Shown here: positions 12,851 through 35,856 of the stretch, in pieces
Position numbering within the stretch: position 1 is the stretch's first letter
How the letters are laid out: each line of letters opens with the position of its first letter
DNA from: a virus
Taxonomy: Duplodnaviria; Caudoviricetes
IMG/VR virus record: IMGVR_UViG_3300025679_000005
Strand: one strand, 5' to 3'
Length of the DNA: 64,000 nt
Notes under the pieces: model-generated
What the model saw: the letters and a program-made list of their open reading frames with translations, nothing else
Databases searched by the model: none
What the model was told of the DNA's origin: nothing
Translations under genes and position numbers: made by a program

Positions 12851-14026
12851 ATGATTCGTTCCTACCGATACCCCCTGCACCCAACGAAGGCCCAGGAAGC
12901 GATCCTGCTTCACTGGCTTCGCATGTGTTGCAGTCTGTATAATGGGGCACTGGAGGAACGTAAGTCCTCTTGGGTCAAGCTAAAGAAGGGTGTCTCCTAC
13001 CTCAATCAGCAGAGGTCTCTGACTATCATTCGGGCACAAGATCCTGACTTCGAAGCGATCCCAGCAGCTATTCTTAGGGCCCCTCTCAAGCGTCTCGATC
13101 GCGCCTACAAGGCGTTCTTCCGCCGTGTTAAATCCGGCGAAACTCCAGGCTTTCCCAGATTTAAGAGCAGTAAGCGCTATGATTCCTTCTCGTTAATGGG
13201 GCAATTCTCTGAGGCCACCCCTAAGGCCAAAGGGCGATCAGCCCAAGTTCGCATCCCGAAGCTGGGGTTAGTCAAGTTCAACCAATACCGACCCCTCAAG
13301 GGGAAGGTCAGAGATATCCTCGTCAAGCGAGAGGCTGATCGATGGTTCGTAATCTTTCAGTGTGACCTAGGAGCTGCCCCTGAGGTCGTTGTCGACCCTA
13401 CGAAGTCCGTCGGCATCGACTTGGGACTCACCCATTTCGGGACTTTGGATGATGGGACGACGATCTCCAATCCCAGGTTCTTCAAGGCAGGGCAGGACCT
13501 CCTAGCACGTCGCCAATGCGCTCTGCAACGCAAGCGCAAGGGCAGCCGCTCCCGACAACGGGCCAAGACCCTAGTCCAGAGGGCTCACGCTCACGTCAAG
13601 AACCAGAGGCTAGATCACGCTAGGAAGCTGGCGAAGTCCCTCTTTGAAACGAATGACATAGTCTGTTACGAGGACCTCTCGATTCAGGAGATGATCTCAG
13701 GTCCTTCCAGAGATGGTAAATACAAGCTCAATTTAGCGAAGTCAATCGTAGATGCGTCCTGGTCAATCACAATCCACTGCCTAAAATGCAAAGCGGAAGA
13801 AGCTGGCAAATTAGCGGTAGGGGTAGATCCAAGAGGGACCACACAGAGGTGTAGTGGGTGCGGAACCGTCGTCCCAAAGGGACTCCGGGACCGCGTTCAT
13901 GATTGCCCCGTCTGTGGCCTCATCATGGATCGTGACCAGAATGCAGGATGTAACATCAAAGCGCTCGGTTTGAGCGCGGTCAGTGGCTTGCGAAGCCAGC
14001 CGAAGTCCGAAAGGAAGGCGGCTTAA
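12851..14026 (+). CDS. tnpB: TnpB RNA-guided nuclease, copy 1 (intact)
   Basis: MIRSYRYPLHPT HTH, GIDLG (RuvC-I), YEDL (RuvC-II), CSGC..CPVC Zn finger, DRDQNA (RuvC-III). Confidence 0.95.
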   Translation: MIRSYRYPLHPTKAQEAILLHWLRMCCSLYNGALEERKSSWVKLKKGVSYLNQQRSLTIIRAQDPDFEAIPAAILRAPLKRLDRAYKAFFRRVKSGETPGFPRFKSSKRYDSFSLMGQFSEATPKAKGRSAQVRIPKLGLVKFNQYRPLKGKVRDILVKREADRWFVIFQCDLGAAPEVVVDPTKSVGIDLGLTHFGTLDDGTTISNPRFFKAGQDLLARRQCALQRKRKGSRSRQRAKTLVQRAHAHVKNQRLDHARKLAKSLFETNDIVCYEDLSIQEMISGPSRDGKYKLNLAKSIVDASWSITIHCLKCKAEEAGKLAVGVDPRGTTQRCSGCGTVVPKGLRDRVHDCPVCGLIMDRDQNAGCNIKALGLSAVSGLRSQPKSERKAA

Positions 14027-14053
14027 ATGAGCCGTCAAGACTCGGGCAAAACC
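12851..14053 (+). mobile_element. IS200/IS605-family tnpB-only element 1
   Basis: Conserved 3' end ...GACTCGGGCAAAACC; no tnpA. Confidence 0.75.
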
Positions 14054-25367: not shown

Positions 25368-26033
25368 GTGCTCAAGGACGACAAGCTCTTGAAGGCTTGG
25401 CGGAAGTGCACGGTCATCGTCAGTGAGAAACTTGACGGTTCCAACACCGGAGTCAGCTTCAGCCCTGAGGGTCTGCTGATCCTTCAGAGTCGGGGCCACG
25501 TGCTCACAGGAGGCGCCAGAGAGCGTCAGTTTGAACTATTCAAGCAATGGGGCCACTCCAACATCGACGCCCTCTACGGAGCCATAGGGAGTCGTTACGT
25601 CCTGTTCGGTGAATGGCTCTATGCCAAGCATAAGGTCTTCTATGATGCATTACCCGGGTACTTCATCGAGTACGACCTGTACGACAAGGAAGCCAAGAGG
25701 TTCTTGACGACGCCTCAACGAGCGGAGATCATCGGATCCTTGGGAGTCCCCTCGGCGCCGGTATTGTTCGAAGGAGTGTTTGGCAAGGTCAACAACTTCG
25801 TGCAATACGTCGGACTGTCCGCGTTCAAGACGCCTAAGTGGCGATCCCATTTAGGTTCCCTCGAAGGAACTGACGACAGCTCGTGGATGGAAGGGATCTA
25901 TATCAAAATCGAGGACGACTTTGAGGTTGTCGGGCGGATCAAGTTTCCTCGCCCGGAATTCGAGAAGATCCGGGATGACGACACGAACTGGCTGCGTCGA
26001 CCGATCGTGAAGAACCTGCTCCGTCAGGGGTGA
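25368..26033 (+). CDS. ATP-dependent RNA ligase family protein
   Basis: SEKLDGSN (motif I), FGEW, EGIYIK. Confidence 0.85.
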   Translation: MLKDDKLLKAWRKCTVIVSEKLDGSNTGVSFSPEGLLILQSRGHVLTGGARERQFELFKQWGHSNIDALYGAIGSRYVLFGEWLYAKHKVFYDALPGYFIEYDLYDKEAKRFLTTPQRAEIIGSLGVPSAPVLFEGVFGKVNNFVQYVGLSAFKTPKWRSHLGSLEGTDDSSWMEGIYIKIEDDFEVVGRIKFPRPEFEKIRDDDTNWLRRPIVKNLLRQG

Positions 26034-26590: not shown

Positions 26591-26983
26591 CTACCATAAC
26601 TTCGGGAGTTTGGAAATTAGTTCGAAGCAGGCCATTGAAGGATTGTACTTGAACCGACAGCCAGTCTTAGTGTCCTTAAGGATAAGGGACACTAACTGCT
26701 CACTCTGTTTCCGGACGTAGGTTTCCGCAGACAATTCGTCGTGAAACATGCTGACCATTCGACCCCTGAGGTCGAGGGCCCAGTATCTGAAAGGCAGATC
26801 CATCATCCGAGCAGGTGTATAAGCAAAGGCTTCAGGCAGCTTTGCGCGGTTTACGACAGGGCTCTTTTTTAGGGTCGGCCAAGAATCTGCCGCGCACATC
26901 CAAGGCAACAGCTCTTCGAAGAGCCTTGAGAGCATTCCATAGCTCTGGCTTTTTCTCCCAACGGATGGCCAAACGCTCGACAT
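26591..26983 (-). CDS. Hypothetical protein
   Basis: ORF track; start uncertain. Confidence 0.4.
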   Translation of the reverse strand: MSSVWPSVGRKSQSYGMLSRLFEELLPWMCAADSWPTLKKSPVVNRAKLPEAFAYTPARMMDLPFRYWALDLRGRMVSMFHDELSAETYVRKQSEQLVSLILKDTKTGCRFKYNPSMACFELISKLPKLW

Positions 26984-27269
26984 TCCAGCAGGTTGGCTTA
27001 CACCACCTCTCGATTGGAAATAGCTGACCGTAAAGAACGCAGCCCTTCAAAGCACACCCCACCTTAGGGTTCTCTCCCATGGGATCCAAGATTCGTGCAG
27101 GGAAGTTGCAGAACGGGCACTGGGCGGGAAGGCCCTCTGGCCCGTGCGCCCACACGAATTCGGCCTCATCGCCTTGACCGTAACCCCCTGTCAGACCTCT
27201 TGTAGCAGATGGTGCAGTACATGGAGTAGCCCGTTCGCAGGCTATAATTAGTGTAGGGCACTTCTCCAC
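26832..27269 (-). CDS. Cys-rich hypothetical protein
   Basis: CPFC...C..KGC; start uncertain. Confidence 0.4.
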   Translation of the reverse strand: MEKCPTLIIACERATPCTAPSATRGLTGGYGQGDEAEFVWAHGPEGLPAQCPFCNFPARILDPMGENPKVGCALKGCVLYGQLFPIERWCKPTCWNVERLAIRWEKKPELWNALKALRRAVALDVRGRFLADPKKEPCRKPRKAA

Positions 27270-27318
27270 AGCAGAGTTTCATGGGATGTTTTTACACCGG
27301 CTTAGATAGGAGGTCCCC

Positions 27319-27588
27319 ATGGAATTTAGAGCGGAGGCTAATCTGCCTGAGGAAGAACTGCTGGAGATCGGCACGTACCTGGGCGGGATACTCGCAAGCG
27401 AGTTGAGGCTCCAGCCATCGGAGGTGGTGGTCAGGGTTGAGATGAAAGAATCCCCCGACGATTCGGAGAACATCGATATCTATTATCGCATCACCATCAA
27501 AAATCGCACCCCCAATGAGTTGGAGATGTTTCAGGCTCAGCAACTATTCGAAAAACTGATGGGTTATGACGAGACGATGCTCAATTAA
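27319..27588 (+). CDS. Hypothetical acidic protein
   Basis: AGGAGG SD. Confidence 0.65.
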   Translation: MEFRAEANLPEEELLEIGTYLGGILASELRLQPSEVVVRVEMKESPDDSENIDIYYRITIKNRTPNELEMFQAQQLFEKLMGYDETMLN

Positions 27589-27608
27589 GTGCTAGACTAC
27601 CTACCCCA

Positions 27609-28802
27609 ATGATCCGTTCCTTTCGTTACCAACTGCATCCAACGAGGGGTCAGGAAGCGACCATGAGGGGCTGGCTTCTCACATGCGGCAGTCTTTACAA
27701 TGGAGCCCTGGAAGAGAAGAAGTCCTCGTGGGTCAGGCTCAAAAAGGGCGTTTCCTACAATGATCAGACCCGGTCACTGACTCTCATCAGATCTCAGGAT
27801 CCTGCTTTTGAAGTGATCCCAATGATGGTGCTGAGATCAGCGCTTAAGCGACTTGAACCGCGGGAAGCCTGGTGTTTCGCCAGACTTTAGGCGTCGGAAG
27901 AATCCGTCGAAGGAGCGATCAAAGGTAGCAAGAGGTATGATTCATTTTCGTTGATGAGATCCTCTAAAGTACTCCCCAAGATCAAAGAACGCTCAGCCCA
28001 AGTCAAAATCCCCAAATTGGGTTTGGTGAATTTCAATCAGTACCGCCCTCACAAGGGAACGATCAAGGACATCCTCGTCAAGCGAGAAGGGGATCGCTGG
28101 TTCGTGATTTTCCAGTGCGATTTGGGAACCTCCCCAGAGACCGTTGTCGACTCCACGAAGTCCGTCGGTATCGACCTGGGACTCACCCATTTCGCGACTC
28201 TGGATTCCGGTGAGACGATCGAGAACCCCAGGTTCTTCAAGGCGGGGCAGGAACTTCTGGCTCGGCGGCAGCGTGCCCTGCAACGCAAGCGCAAGGGCAG
28301 TTCTAGTCGGAAGCGGGCCAAAATCCTTGTCCAGAGGGCTCACGCTCACATCAAGAATCAGCGATTAGATCACGCTAGGAAGCTGGCAAAGTCACTCTTC
28401 AGTCGGTTTGACGTTGTCTGTTACGAAGACCTCACGATCCAGTCAATGATCGAAGGTTCTTATCTAGCGAAATCAATCGTAGATGCGTCCTGGTCAATTA
28501 CAATCCACTGCCTAAAGTGCAAAGCGGAAGAAGCTGGCAAATTAGCGGTAGGGGTAGATCCAAGAGGGACCACACAGAGGTGTCATGCCTGCGGAACCGT
28601 TGTCCCCAAGGGACTCCGTGACCGCGTCCATGATTGCCCAGAGTGCGGCCTCATCATGGATCGTGACCAGAATGCAGGATGTAACATCAAAGCGCTCGGT
28701 TTGAGCGTGGTCAGTGGTCGATTTGACCAGCCGAAGTCCATAGGATCCTCAGATTTTATGGGCAAAACCCGGACACGAACCTGCTCAAAGACAGCAGGTT
28801 AA
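27609..28802 (+). pseudogene. tnpB: TnpB copy 2, interrupted by a 62-bp internal inversion (27857-27918)
   Basis: Flipping the segment restores KRLDRSFDGFFRRLKSGETPGFPRFKGSKRY in frame; RuvC D/E/D intact. Confidence 0.92.
28689..28790 (+). ncRNA. Predicted omega-RNA 3' scaffold and guide, copy 2
   Basis: Ends GGGCAAAACC at 28769. Confidence 0.65.
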
Positions 28803-29963: not shown

Positions 29964-31152
29964 ATGGATCGTTCCTACCGATACCCCCTGCATCCGACGA
30001 AGGGCCAGGAAGCGACCTTGCTTCACTGGCTTCGCGTGTGCTGTAGTCTCTACAACGGGGCTCTAGAAGAACGTAGGGGTTCTTGGAGTCGACTCAAAAA
30101 AGGGAATTACCTACGTTGATCAATCAAAGTCCTTGACCACCATTCGCGGGCAAGACCCTGAATTCGAAGCTATCCCCGCTTCTATCCTGAGGTCTCCTTT
30201 GAAACGCTTGGATCACTCCTACAAGGCATTTTTCCGCCGCGTGCAGTCTGAGGAAACGCCTGGCTTCCCACGGTTCAAGAGCAGCAAGCGTTACAACTCT
30301 TTCTCGCTAATGATATCAGCCTCTAAGGTCGTCCCAAAGACCGAAGGATCATCAGCCTTAGTGAGAGTCCCAAAATTAGGTCTTGTTAAGTTCAATCAGT
30401 ATCGACCACATCTTGGGAAGATCAGAAATACCGTTGTCAAGCATGAGGCCGGTAAATGGTTCGTGATCTTCCAGTGCGATTTGGGAACCTCCCCAGAGAC
30501 CGTTGTCGACTCCACGAAGTCCGTCGGTATTGACCTAGGGCTCACCCACTTCGCGACATTAGACTCCGGTGAGACGGTCGAGAACCCCAGGTTCTTCAAG
30601 GCGGGACAAGAGACCCTTGCGAAGCGCCAACGCAAGCTATCGCGTAAGCGCAGAGGCAGCAGGTCTAGACAACGGGCTAAGACCCTCGTTCAAAGAGCCC
30701 ACCTTCATATCAAGAATCAGAGGTTAGATCACGCTAGGAAGCTGGCAAAGTTTCTCTTCAGTCGGTTCGATGTGGTCTGTTACGAGAACCTTCAGATAGC
30801 AAACATGATTCAGGGAAACCTGAGCAAGGCAATCTCGGATGCGGGTTGGTCTATACTCCTCAAGTGCCTAAGATGCAAAGCTGAGAATGCTGGCAAACTG
30901 GCAATTGGGGTTGATCCAAGGGGAACCACACAGAGGTGCCATGGGTGCGGGGAGATCGTCCCCAAGGGACTTCGGGTCCGCGTCCACAATTGCCCTTTCT
31001 GTGGTCTCGTCATGGACAGAGATCAGAACGCTGCCCTAAATATCAAAGCGCTCGGTTTGAGCGCGGTCAACGGCCTGCAAGGCCAGCCGAAGCTTAAGCT
31101 AGAAGTTTTAAGCAAAACCTCAGAAACCTTCTTTGTAGCGGATCCTTTGTGA
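29964..31152 (+). pseudogene. tnpB: TnpB copy 3, frameshifted by one extra base in an A6G3 tract (30096-30104)
   Basis: N-terminus MDRSYRYPLHPT stops at TGA 30117; remainder in +1 frame with intact RuvC motifs. Confidence 0.9.
31045..31140 (+). ncRNA. Predicted omega-RNA 3' scaffold and guide, copy 3
   Basis: Ends AAGCAAAACC at 31119. Confidence 0.65.
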
Positions 31153-34288: not shown

Positions 34289-34717
34289 ATGTCCACGCCA
34301 CTCCTCCTCATTGAACGCACTTCCGACACCCCGATACGTCCCAAAGATATCGACGGAGATAGTGCCTTTATCGGAGCGTTTGGTCAACGTGAGCAGGAGA
34401 CACTAGCCCTCTGGATTGTGCGTCTGTGCCAGGCCAGGAAGAGTTGGCGCCCGTTCAAAATAACGGATCTCGTGAACTACTACGCGATGCATTACGGGAT
34501 TGAAGCTAAGGACTTCGAGTACAGCCTGAGCTTTTTGACGAAGCAAGACTGGGTCGTGGTCGAGGGGGAAGTCGTCACCCTCACTATCCCCTTTGTTGCT
34601 CAATGCTACTTGCACGCTCCGATATTGAGGCTGCCTTTAAGAAAAAAGGTTCGTAAACCTAAAGTGATCGAGCGCATTAGCCGTTACGAACGGCTAATGA
34701 AAGGGTTTCTTCCATAG
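34289..34717 (+). CDS. Hypothetical protein; last codons supplied by convergent TnpB element end
   Basis: Overlaps element 4 right end (34704-34717). Confidence 0.6.
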   Translation: MSTPLLLIERTSDTPIRPKDIDGDSAFIGAFGQREQETLALWIVRLCQARKSWRPFKITDLVNYYAMHYGIEAKDFEYSLSFLTKQDWVVVEGEVVTLTIPFVAQCYLHAPILRLPLRKKVRKPKVIERISRYERLMKGFLP

Positions 34718-35856
34718 ACTCTGGAATTCGGCTGGGGCTTCATCCCCAAGACCGCGCTCAAACCGAGCGCTTTTATATTCAATGCAGCGTTCTGATCTCT
34801 GTCCATGACGAGACCACAGACAGGGCAGCTATGGACGCGGTCCCGAAGTCCCTTGGGGACGACGGACCCGCACGCATGACACCTCTGTGTGGTCCCTCTT
34901 GGATCTACCCCTACTGCTAACTTGCCAGCTTCTTCCGCTTTGCATTTTAGGCAGTGAATGGTGATTGACCAGGATGCATCTGTGATTGATTTGGCTAGAT
35001 ATGAGCCTTCGATCATCTGGGCTATTGAAAGGTCTTCGTAGCAGACGATGTCATTCAATTCGAAAAGACTCTTAGCGAGCTTCCTAGCGTGATCTAGGCG
35101 CTGATTCTTGATATGGGCGTGAGCCCGCTGGACTAGGATCTTAGCTCGCTTCCGACTGTTGCTGCCCCGGCGCTTGCGTTGCAGAGCGCGTTGGCGCCTG
35201 GCCAATAGATCCTGACCGGCCTTGAAGAAGCGAGGGTTCTCGATCGTTTCACCAGAATCGAGGGTGCTGAAATGAGCCAACCCGAGGTCGATACCGACGG
35301 ACTTCGTGGGGTCGACAACGACCTCGGGAGCGGCTCCGAGGTCACACTGAAAGATCACGAACCAGCGATTACCCTCTCTGCGAACTGAGATGTCCTTGAG
35401 CATTCCCTTGTGGGGGCGGTACTGGTTGAACTTGATTAGGCCTAACTTAGGGATTTTGACTCGGGCTGAATAGCCACTGGCCTTTGGGATCGGCTCAGAG
35501 AACTGTCCCATGAGCGAGAAAGAGTTATACCGTTTAGAGCTACGGAAGCGAGGGAATCCCGGCGTTTCGCCAGACTTTAGACGACGGAAGAATGCCTTGT
35601 AGGCGTGGTCAAGGCGCTTGAGAGGGGTCCTGAGGATAGTGGCTGGAATCGTCCTGAATTCAGGGTCTTGGGATCGAATGAGGGTCAGGGATTTCTGTTG
35701 ATCGTATCTGGTCAAACTTTTGCCGAATCTACGATAGCAGTTGATTCGCTCTTCCAACGCCCCGTTGTAGAGGCTACAACACAAGCGAAGCCAGTGTAGC
35801 AGAATTACTTCTTGGGTCTTCGTCGGATGCAGCGGGTATCGATAAGAACGGATCAT
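34684..35856 (-). CDS. tnpB: TnpB RNA-guided nuclease, copy 4 (intact)
   Basis: All RuvC and Zn-finger motifs; right end GGAAGAAACC at 34704. Confidence 0.95.
   Translation of the reverse strand: MIRSYRYPLHPTKTQEVILLHWLRLCCSLYNGALEERINCYRRFGKSLTRYDQQKSLTLIRSQDPEFRTIPATILRTPLKRLDHAYKAFFRRLKSGETPGFPRFRSSKRYNSFSLMGQFSEPIPKASGYSARVKIPKLGLIKFNQYRPHKGMLKDISVRREGNRWFVIFQCDLGAAPEVVVDPTKSVGIDLGLAHFSTLDSGETIENPRFFKAGQDLLARRQRALQRKRRGSNSRKRAKILVQRAHAHIKNQRLDHARKLAKSLFELNDIVCYEDLSIAQMIEGSYLAKSITDASWSITIHCLKCKAEEAGKLAVGVDPRGTTQRCHACGSVVPKGLRDRVHSCPVCGLVMDRDQNAALNIKALGLSAVLGMKPQPNSRVYGRNPFISRS

Follow-up and report, generated by a model that had tools for sequence, protein, structure and literature searches.

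Pure micro-inversions with inverted repeats of 3-75 nt at their edges have been described as a class of mutation and attributed to template switching or to microhomology-mediated break-induced replication (MMBIR) (PMC8755829; PMC5453318). In both the human-chimpanzee set (PMC8755829) and the four-point template-switch model (PMC5453318), the product is an exact reverse complement formed in place, with no gain or loss of bases. The inversion reported here has the same form. It lies in copy 2 of five paralogous tnpB genes identified by tblastn in the window, the 64-kb stretch of phage DNA that was analyzed. As in the human-chimpanzee set, an inverted repeat abuts the breakpoints (at 4 bp it belongs to the 'intermediate' class of 4-7 nt in that study), and only one orientation of this single event is known. 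It differs from that set in size, 62 bp as compared to 17-33 bp, and in affecting the coding region of a phage-borne selfish gene, whereas the primate cases are found in non-coding DNA.

The closest characterized relative of the interrupted gene is the ISDra2 TnpB of Deinococcus radiodurans (PMC8612924; PMC10097598), with which it shares three Pfam domains, the RuvC D/E/D residues and the zinc-finger motifs, as well as a predicted structured RNA overlapping the ORF at its 3' end, with flank-derived sequence after it. In contrast to ISDra2, no tnpA was found in the window, a conserved left end is missing from the elements, their right end reads AAACC and not GGTTCAAG, and the ORF runs ~33 nt beyond the right end into the flank; in addition, copy 2 appears to be inactivated by the inversion. 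A third point of comparison is the invertons (Hin/Gin, FimB/E and those of Bacteroides), in which a segment between inverted repeats, located in or before a gene, can likewise stand in an 'off' orientation. Invertons, however, have repeats of ~10-30 bp, a cognate recombinase, both orientations in the population and conservation across strains, none of which was found here. The tnpB copies of the window and the parts of copy 2 are listed below.

12851 to 14026, plus strand: tnpB copy 1, intact paralogue, 78% amino acid identity to restored copy 2.
27609 to 28802, plus strand: tnpB copy 2, ISDra2-like TnpB pseudogene, 397 codons when the segment is flipped back.
27609 to 27890, plus strand: N-terminal fragment ORF of copy 2, 93 aa, with HTH_OrfB_IS605; ends at the TAG at 27888-27890 within the flipped segment.
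27853 to 27856, no strand assigned: left inverted-repeat arm TTGA, with the left breakpoint somewhere inside.
27857 to 27918, no strand assigned: inverted core segment of 62 bp; its minus strand encodes TnpB residues 83-104 with the conserved DRSF-DGFFRR...PGFPRF motif.
27919 to 27922, no strand assigned: right inverted-repeat arm TCAA, with the right breakpoint somewhere inside.
27954 to 28802, plus strand: C-terminal fragment ORF of copy 2, 282 aa in public gene calls, with OrfB_IS605 and Cas12f1-like_TNB and without the REC domain.
28540 to 28769, plus strand: predicted omegaRNA-like 3' scaffold of copy 2, conserved with the paralogues, with hairpins showing compensatory changes; ends in AAAACC.
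28770 to 28789, plus strand: putative guide of copy 2, flank DNA directly past the right end, placed by the end of homology.
29964 to 31152, plus strand: tnpB copy 3, broken independently, with one extra A in the A-run 30096-30101.
34684 to 35856, minus strand: tnpB copy 4, intact paralogue, found by tblastn.
40601 to 41752, plus strand: tnpB copy 5, intact paralogue, matching ISDra2 TnpB structures (E 1.8e-42).

Reverse-complementing the 62-bp core at 27857-27918 opens the frame 27609-28802 throughout and yields the uninterrupted 397-aa TnpB that the original prediction had announced. The flip merges the two fragments of copy 2, ORF 27609-27890 (93 aa) and the ORF that starts at 27951 or 27954 and ends at 28802 (283 or 282 aa). 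When possible flips were enumerated, only five turned the restored sequence into the observed one (27853/27922, 27854/27921, 27855/27920, 27856/27919, and 27857/27918). These five are equivalent because TTGA at 27853-27856 and TCAA at 27919-27922 form a 4-bp inverted repeat, and the enumeration thereby confirmed the repeat as the boundary of the segment, as had been proposed. The inversion is in place and length-neutral, with 0 bases gained or lost and a flipped size of 62-70 bp. The repeat abuts both breakpoints, a coincidence expected by chance at about 1/256 for a given breakpoint pair; its arms are 4 bp long and show no further symmetry.

By sequence comparison, the ancestral orientation can be taken as fixed by the four window paralogues together with seven protein queries. 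The restored segment is colinear with all four paralogues at 65-77% nucleotide identity (70-77% over the whole ORF), and the paralogues share 74-79% amino acid identity with restored copy 2. The protein queries, consisting of the paralogues P0002 and P0003 and five relatives (~50% identity) from other metagenomes, were searched against the unmodified region. All 7 gave a minus-strand HSP covering residues ~79-110 at 27840-27935, with E values from 1.6e-5 to 1e-12. The family motif FFRR...PGFPRF[KR] is present in the restored peptide. A patch copied in from a paralogue was also considered and rejected: the segment reaches only 65-77% identity with each of the window paralogues and P0003 differs at three patch residues, and the sequence was therefore flipped from copy 2 itself.

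In its current frame, copy 2 contains a single internal stop, the TAG at 27888-27890 (codon 94), in addition to the normal terminal stop; the rest of the gene is free of lesions, in agreement with the original prediction. The TAG has a trivial origin as the reverse complement of a CTA leucine codon. The flip scrambles residues 83-104, which by alignment correspond to residues ~87-109 of an ISDra2-type TnpB. In ISDra2 TnpB, the REC domain comprises residues 13-116 and the TAM is read by K76, F77, and Q80 (PMC10097598); judged from the alignment, the scrambled stretch lies inside this domain and adjoins the TAM-reading residues. The 93-aa fragment lacks the WED, RuvC, and TNB parts and the 282-aa fragment lacks REC, and the nuclease function of copy 2 has probably been lost. 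Copy 2 is thus a young pseudogene whose only lesion is the inversion, and the event is evolutionarily recent, no further lesion being present in 1194 bp. The event had been described as recent or reversible; the absence of other lesions speaks for the former, and phase variation found no support.

A 94-nt tRNA with the anticodon CUA (amber suppressor) was found by both ARAGORN and Rfam at 42581-42674 on the minus strand. Read-through of the TAG by this phage tRNA(CUA) could yield a TnpB of full length in which a patch of 22 REC residues is altered, a reading to which we give little weight. Window-wide recoding of TAG was considered and rejected, as ORF statistics were not clearly improved and TAG terminates 15 of the 69 long ORFs.

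The flip was found in three assemblies, namely the window itself, a MEGAHIT contig from ENA and a Logan contig. The ENA contig is 100% identical to the window over 6849 bp around the gene, flip included. The Logan contig (9163 bp, depth 83.6) spans 26800-28139 with 0 mismatches, 0 gaps and no variant letters, and no alternative joint was seen in this interval at ~84x, bearing in mind that contigs drop rare variants. The exact 282-aa C-terminal product is present on two contigs of 465,854 and 464,302 bp, the second of which is the ENA MEGAHIT contig. As many as 96% of sampled words from the stretch were recovered from one public run, a 2016 peat metagenome that is also the source of the Logan contig, and the three assemblies probably derive from one peat sample. 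This probable common origin, with one SRA run containing the stretch, is what would favor an assembly error or a chimeric library molecule (e.g., from MDA), a possibility named in the original prediction. However, the three assemblies were made with different software and agree base for base, and the depth is flat at ~84. Random chimeras would not become the consensus, and they would rarely give a clean in-place inversion with two junctions. The flip is not an assembler artefact, because the three assemblies agree and a 4-bp repeat cannot confuse de Bruijn graph assemblers working at k = 31-141. We consider an origin in assembly or library preparation, taken together, very unlikely.

Further into the gene, at 28140-28700, the Logan contigs of the source run are fragmented and their summed depth reaches ~980. 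The cause is the k = 31 graph, in which the many tnpB paralogues collapse over their conserved RuvC/TNB part, and depth or variant calls in this interval are no measure of heterogeneity in copy 2.

Taken together, the data point with good confidence to a single in-place inversion of 62-70 bp at TTGA/TCAA, caused by an error of replication or break repair, which left copy 2 a young pseudogene. The error would have occurred at the 4-bp inverted microhomology. In an inter-strand template switch, the nascent strand would have jumped onto the complementary strand at the first arm and returned at the second; alternatively, MMBIR may have repaired a break inside the segment. Either event would scramble REC residues 83-104, create the TAG at codon 94 and split copy 2. 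The template-switch origin suggested in the original prediction thus remains the likeliest, given an exact, length-neutral flip symmetric about a 4-bp repeat. Template switching and MMBIR are indistinguishable in this case because the mechanism is read from the scar alone and the repeat is short; a repeat of this length has been regarded as scant for two polymerase jumps (PMC8755829). In the restored orientation, positions 27847-27861 form a quasi-palindrome with a 5-bp stem, AGCGA-CTTGA-TCGCT, located exactly on the left breakpoint. Such a stem could act as a pause or hairpin site favoring a template switch, and stems of this kind are common by chance.

The symmetry of the repeat is also compatible with two staggered double-strand cuts across the 4-bp sites, followed by religation of the released fragment in reverse. 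With 5'-TTGA at each end of the fragment and 5'-TCAA on each flank, the 4-nt overhangs would be compatible and either orientation ligatable, and the phage has several nucleases and ligases; the cutter might be a restriction-type enzyme, TnpB or a Cas nuclease. Such a route, however, requires two simultaneous cuts with the same stagger, and no known enzyme that cuts around TTGA in this manner was identified. Self-targeting by the omegaRNA guides was tried as a source of the cuts and rejected, as none of the five guides matches near the breakpoints, the best having 4-7 mismatches in 16 nt, which is at chance level. Cutting and religation is accordingly an improbable origin next to the replication or repair error.

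The original prediction also invoked a TnpA-like inversion, in which an IS200/IS605 TnpA (Y1 HUH transposase) cuts at TTGAT and TTCAA and the piece is rejoined in reverse. The gene is an ISDra2-like tnpB, and the restored borders do read TTGAT and TTCAA as stated there. TTGAT is the target and TAM of ISDra2, and the ISDra2 right-end oligonucleotide contains GGTTCAAG, with GGTTCAA as at the border seen here (PMC2806898). A match of the borders to these ISDra2-like strings (TTGAT; GGTTCAA) is improbable post hoc, on the order of 1e-3 to 1e-4, and is explained only as chance at conserved codons. TTGA and TCAA encode the conserved Leu-Asp and Phe-Lys, respectively, copy 5 has both strings at the same aligned places, and across the window the frequency of each string is about one per 193 nt. 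The reading of the borders as cleavage motifs fails on the junctions themselves: cuts 3' of both motifs would define 27858-27922, and flipping this interval fails to regenerate what is observed. The subterminal hairpins that TnpA requires are missing beside the motifs, the single-stranded DNA fold of the region being unremarkable (z = -0.48), and the local elements lack a conserved left end and have the right end AAACC, which is not of the ISDra2 type. No Y1_Tnp domain (PF01797) was detected in the 64-kb window, and in a Pfam search domains of Y1 transposases, resolvases or integrases were absent from the 61 other ORFs of >=120 aa. TnpA acts on a single strand with fixed polarity (peel-and-paste), and this transposase is not known to have any route to an in-place inversion. 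The involvement of TnpA is therefore extremely unlikely, and an error of replication or break repair remains the preferred origin.

A further suggestion was that the segment serves as a phase-variable ON/OFF switch, flipping to and fro in the phage population and thereby toggling an RNA-guided nuclease. The flip is exact and the gene otherwise intact, so reversal would restore function, and the inverted repeat survives the flip, so that reversal is possible in principle by the same process. The available sequences nevertheless speak against a switch. No second orientation was seen in the contigs at ~84x, with the proviso given above for rare variants. Among 5.8 billion protein clusters no full-length allele was found; the search returned the truncated 282-aa product, which is the only match above 83% identity, paralogues at 76-83% from the same two contigs, and other matches that were all at <=61%. 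Neither an uninverted allele nor an orthologue was present in the viral contig collection, the metagenome contig collection contained no uninverted allele and only relatives at <=52% identity, and megablast against GenBank phages gave no match. The relative P0012, on a 469-kb contig, is not syntenic.

The machinery expected of a switch is likewise absent from the window, in that the repeats are only 4 bp without further symmetry and the 61 other ORFs are free of the recombinase domains named above. A loop of 62-70 bp is also far under the DNA persistence length required for synapsis, an argument taken from PMC8755829. Moreover, with four to six intact paralogues, a switch in one copy would be pointless. 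The original prediction had proposed looking for the same inversion in relatives, and an opposite-strand motif was found in 0 of 56 related loci. A recurrent hot spot at the conserved Leu-Asp/Phe-Lys codons was also rejected, with 0 of 56 loci flagged and 29 of 56 colinear through the motif. A phase-variable switch is thus highly improbable, and the inverted copy would be a dead end. With no second orientation in the contigs and no relative carrying the flip, the inversion is therefore a one-off mutation, which is how the original prediction would have classed it under these circumstances. Reversal at a useful rate by a recombinase-free process, e.g., template switching at the 4-bp repeat, giving a stochastic ON/OFF toggle of one nuclease copy, is likewise very unlikely. 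If both orientations were present in deep reads, the locus would be a recombinase-free switch, and nothing observed here points in that direction.

The identity of the genes as tnpB is well supported. Pfam matches to HTH_OrfB_IS605, OrfB_IS605 (RuvC), and Cas12f1-like_TNB were obtained for the two copy 2 fragments and a paralogue, and the restored translation contains GIDLG, YEDL, DRDQNA, and CHACG...CPECG, aligned with the catalytic positions of ISDra2-type TnpB. For an intact paralogue, the match to the ISDra2 TnpB structures 8BF8, 8EXA, and 8H1J covers nearly the full length (E 1.8e-42). The five copies are homologous from the ATG through the hairpins up to an AAACC that all of them share. 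Because homology is confined to this interval, the elements appear from their sequence to be TnpA-less tnpB/omegaRNA units without a recognizable left end. In the five-copy alignment of the predicted omegaRNA, 59 pairs are predicted, six of them with compensatory changes, and no Rfam family reached the gathering score for this scaffold. The omegaRNA-like part of copy 2 is intact and untouched by the inversion.

The tnpB frames extend beyond AAACC, the presumed right end, by 28770-28802 in copy 2 and likewise in the other copies. Flank/guide DNA thus supplies the final ~11 codons of copy 2, and these codons differ between copies. A flank-encoded C-terminus agrees with reports that the C-terminal tail of ISDra2 TnpB is disordered and poorly conserved. 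Copies 1 (14005-14053) and 5 (41731-41779) have an extra stretch of ~15 nt and a longer closing hairpin late in the omegaRNA-like scaffold. The stretch is absent from copies 2, 3, and 4, and this difference suggests two element sub-lineages.

At least two further paralogues (P0003 and P0005) are located elsewhere on the source contig, giving at least seven diverged elements in all. Copy 3 has A6 where the paralogues have A5, which shifts the frame after residue ~47 and requires a +1 shift for repair; the lesion looks like an ordinary frameshift mutation. Given this frameshift and the flip in copy 2, two of the five window tnpB copies are dead by unrelated lesions. The lesion in copy 3 fits a picture in which redundant TnpA-less tnpB elements decay one after another, not all of them being maintained.

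The source is probably a huge phage, a peat element of ~465 kb. The window encodes HNH endonucleases, RNA ligase, Tpt1, NAD synthase, ADP-ribosylglycohydrolase, dUTPase, sigma factors and many ORFans. RNA-repair and tRNA-related genes are concentrated there (25368-26033 and other ORFs), including RNA ligase, a Tpt1/KptA 2'-phosphotransferase, a tRNA-ligase CPD-like domain, a cREC_REC receiver and an RRM protein. The NAD synthase, the ADP-ribosylglycohydrolase and two sigma-70-like factors are found alongside them.

For annotation, copy 2 should be entered as a single tnpB pseudogene carrying a micro-inversion of 62 bp and not as the two genes publicly called. The type of mutation is known and the location is new; the inversion is a real, recent, one-off event by which one redundant selfish nuclease gene was pseudogenized. 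It provides a clean case from a prokaryotic virus in which a 4-bp inverted microhomology delimits a pure micro-inversion and the ancestral state is known from paralogues.
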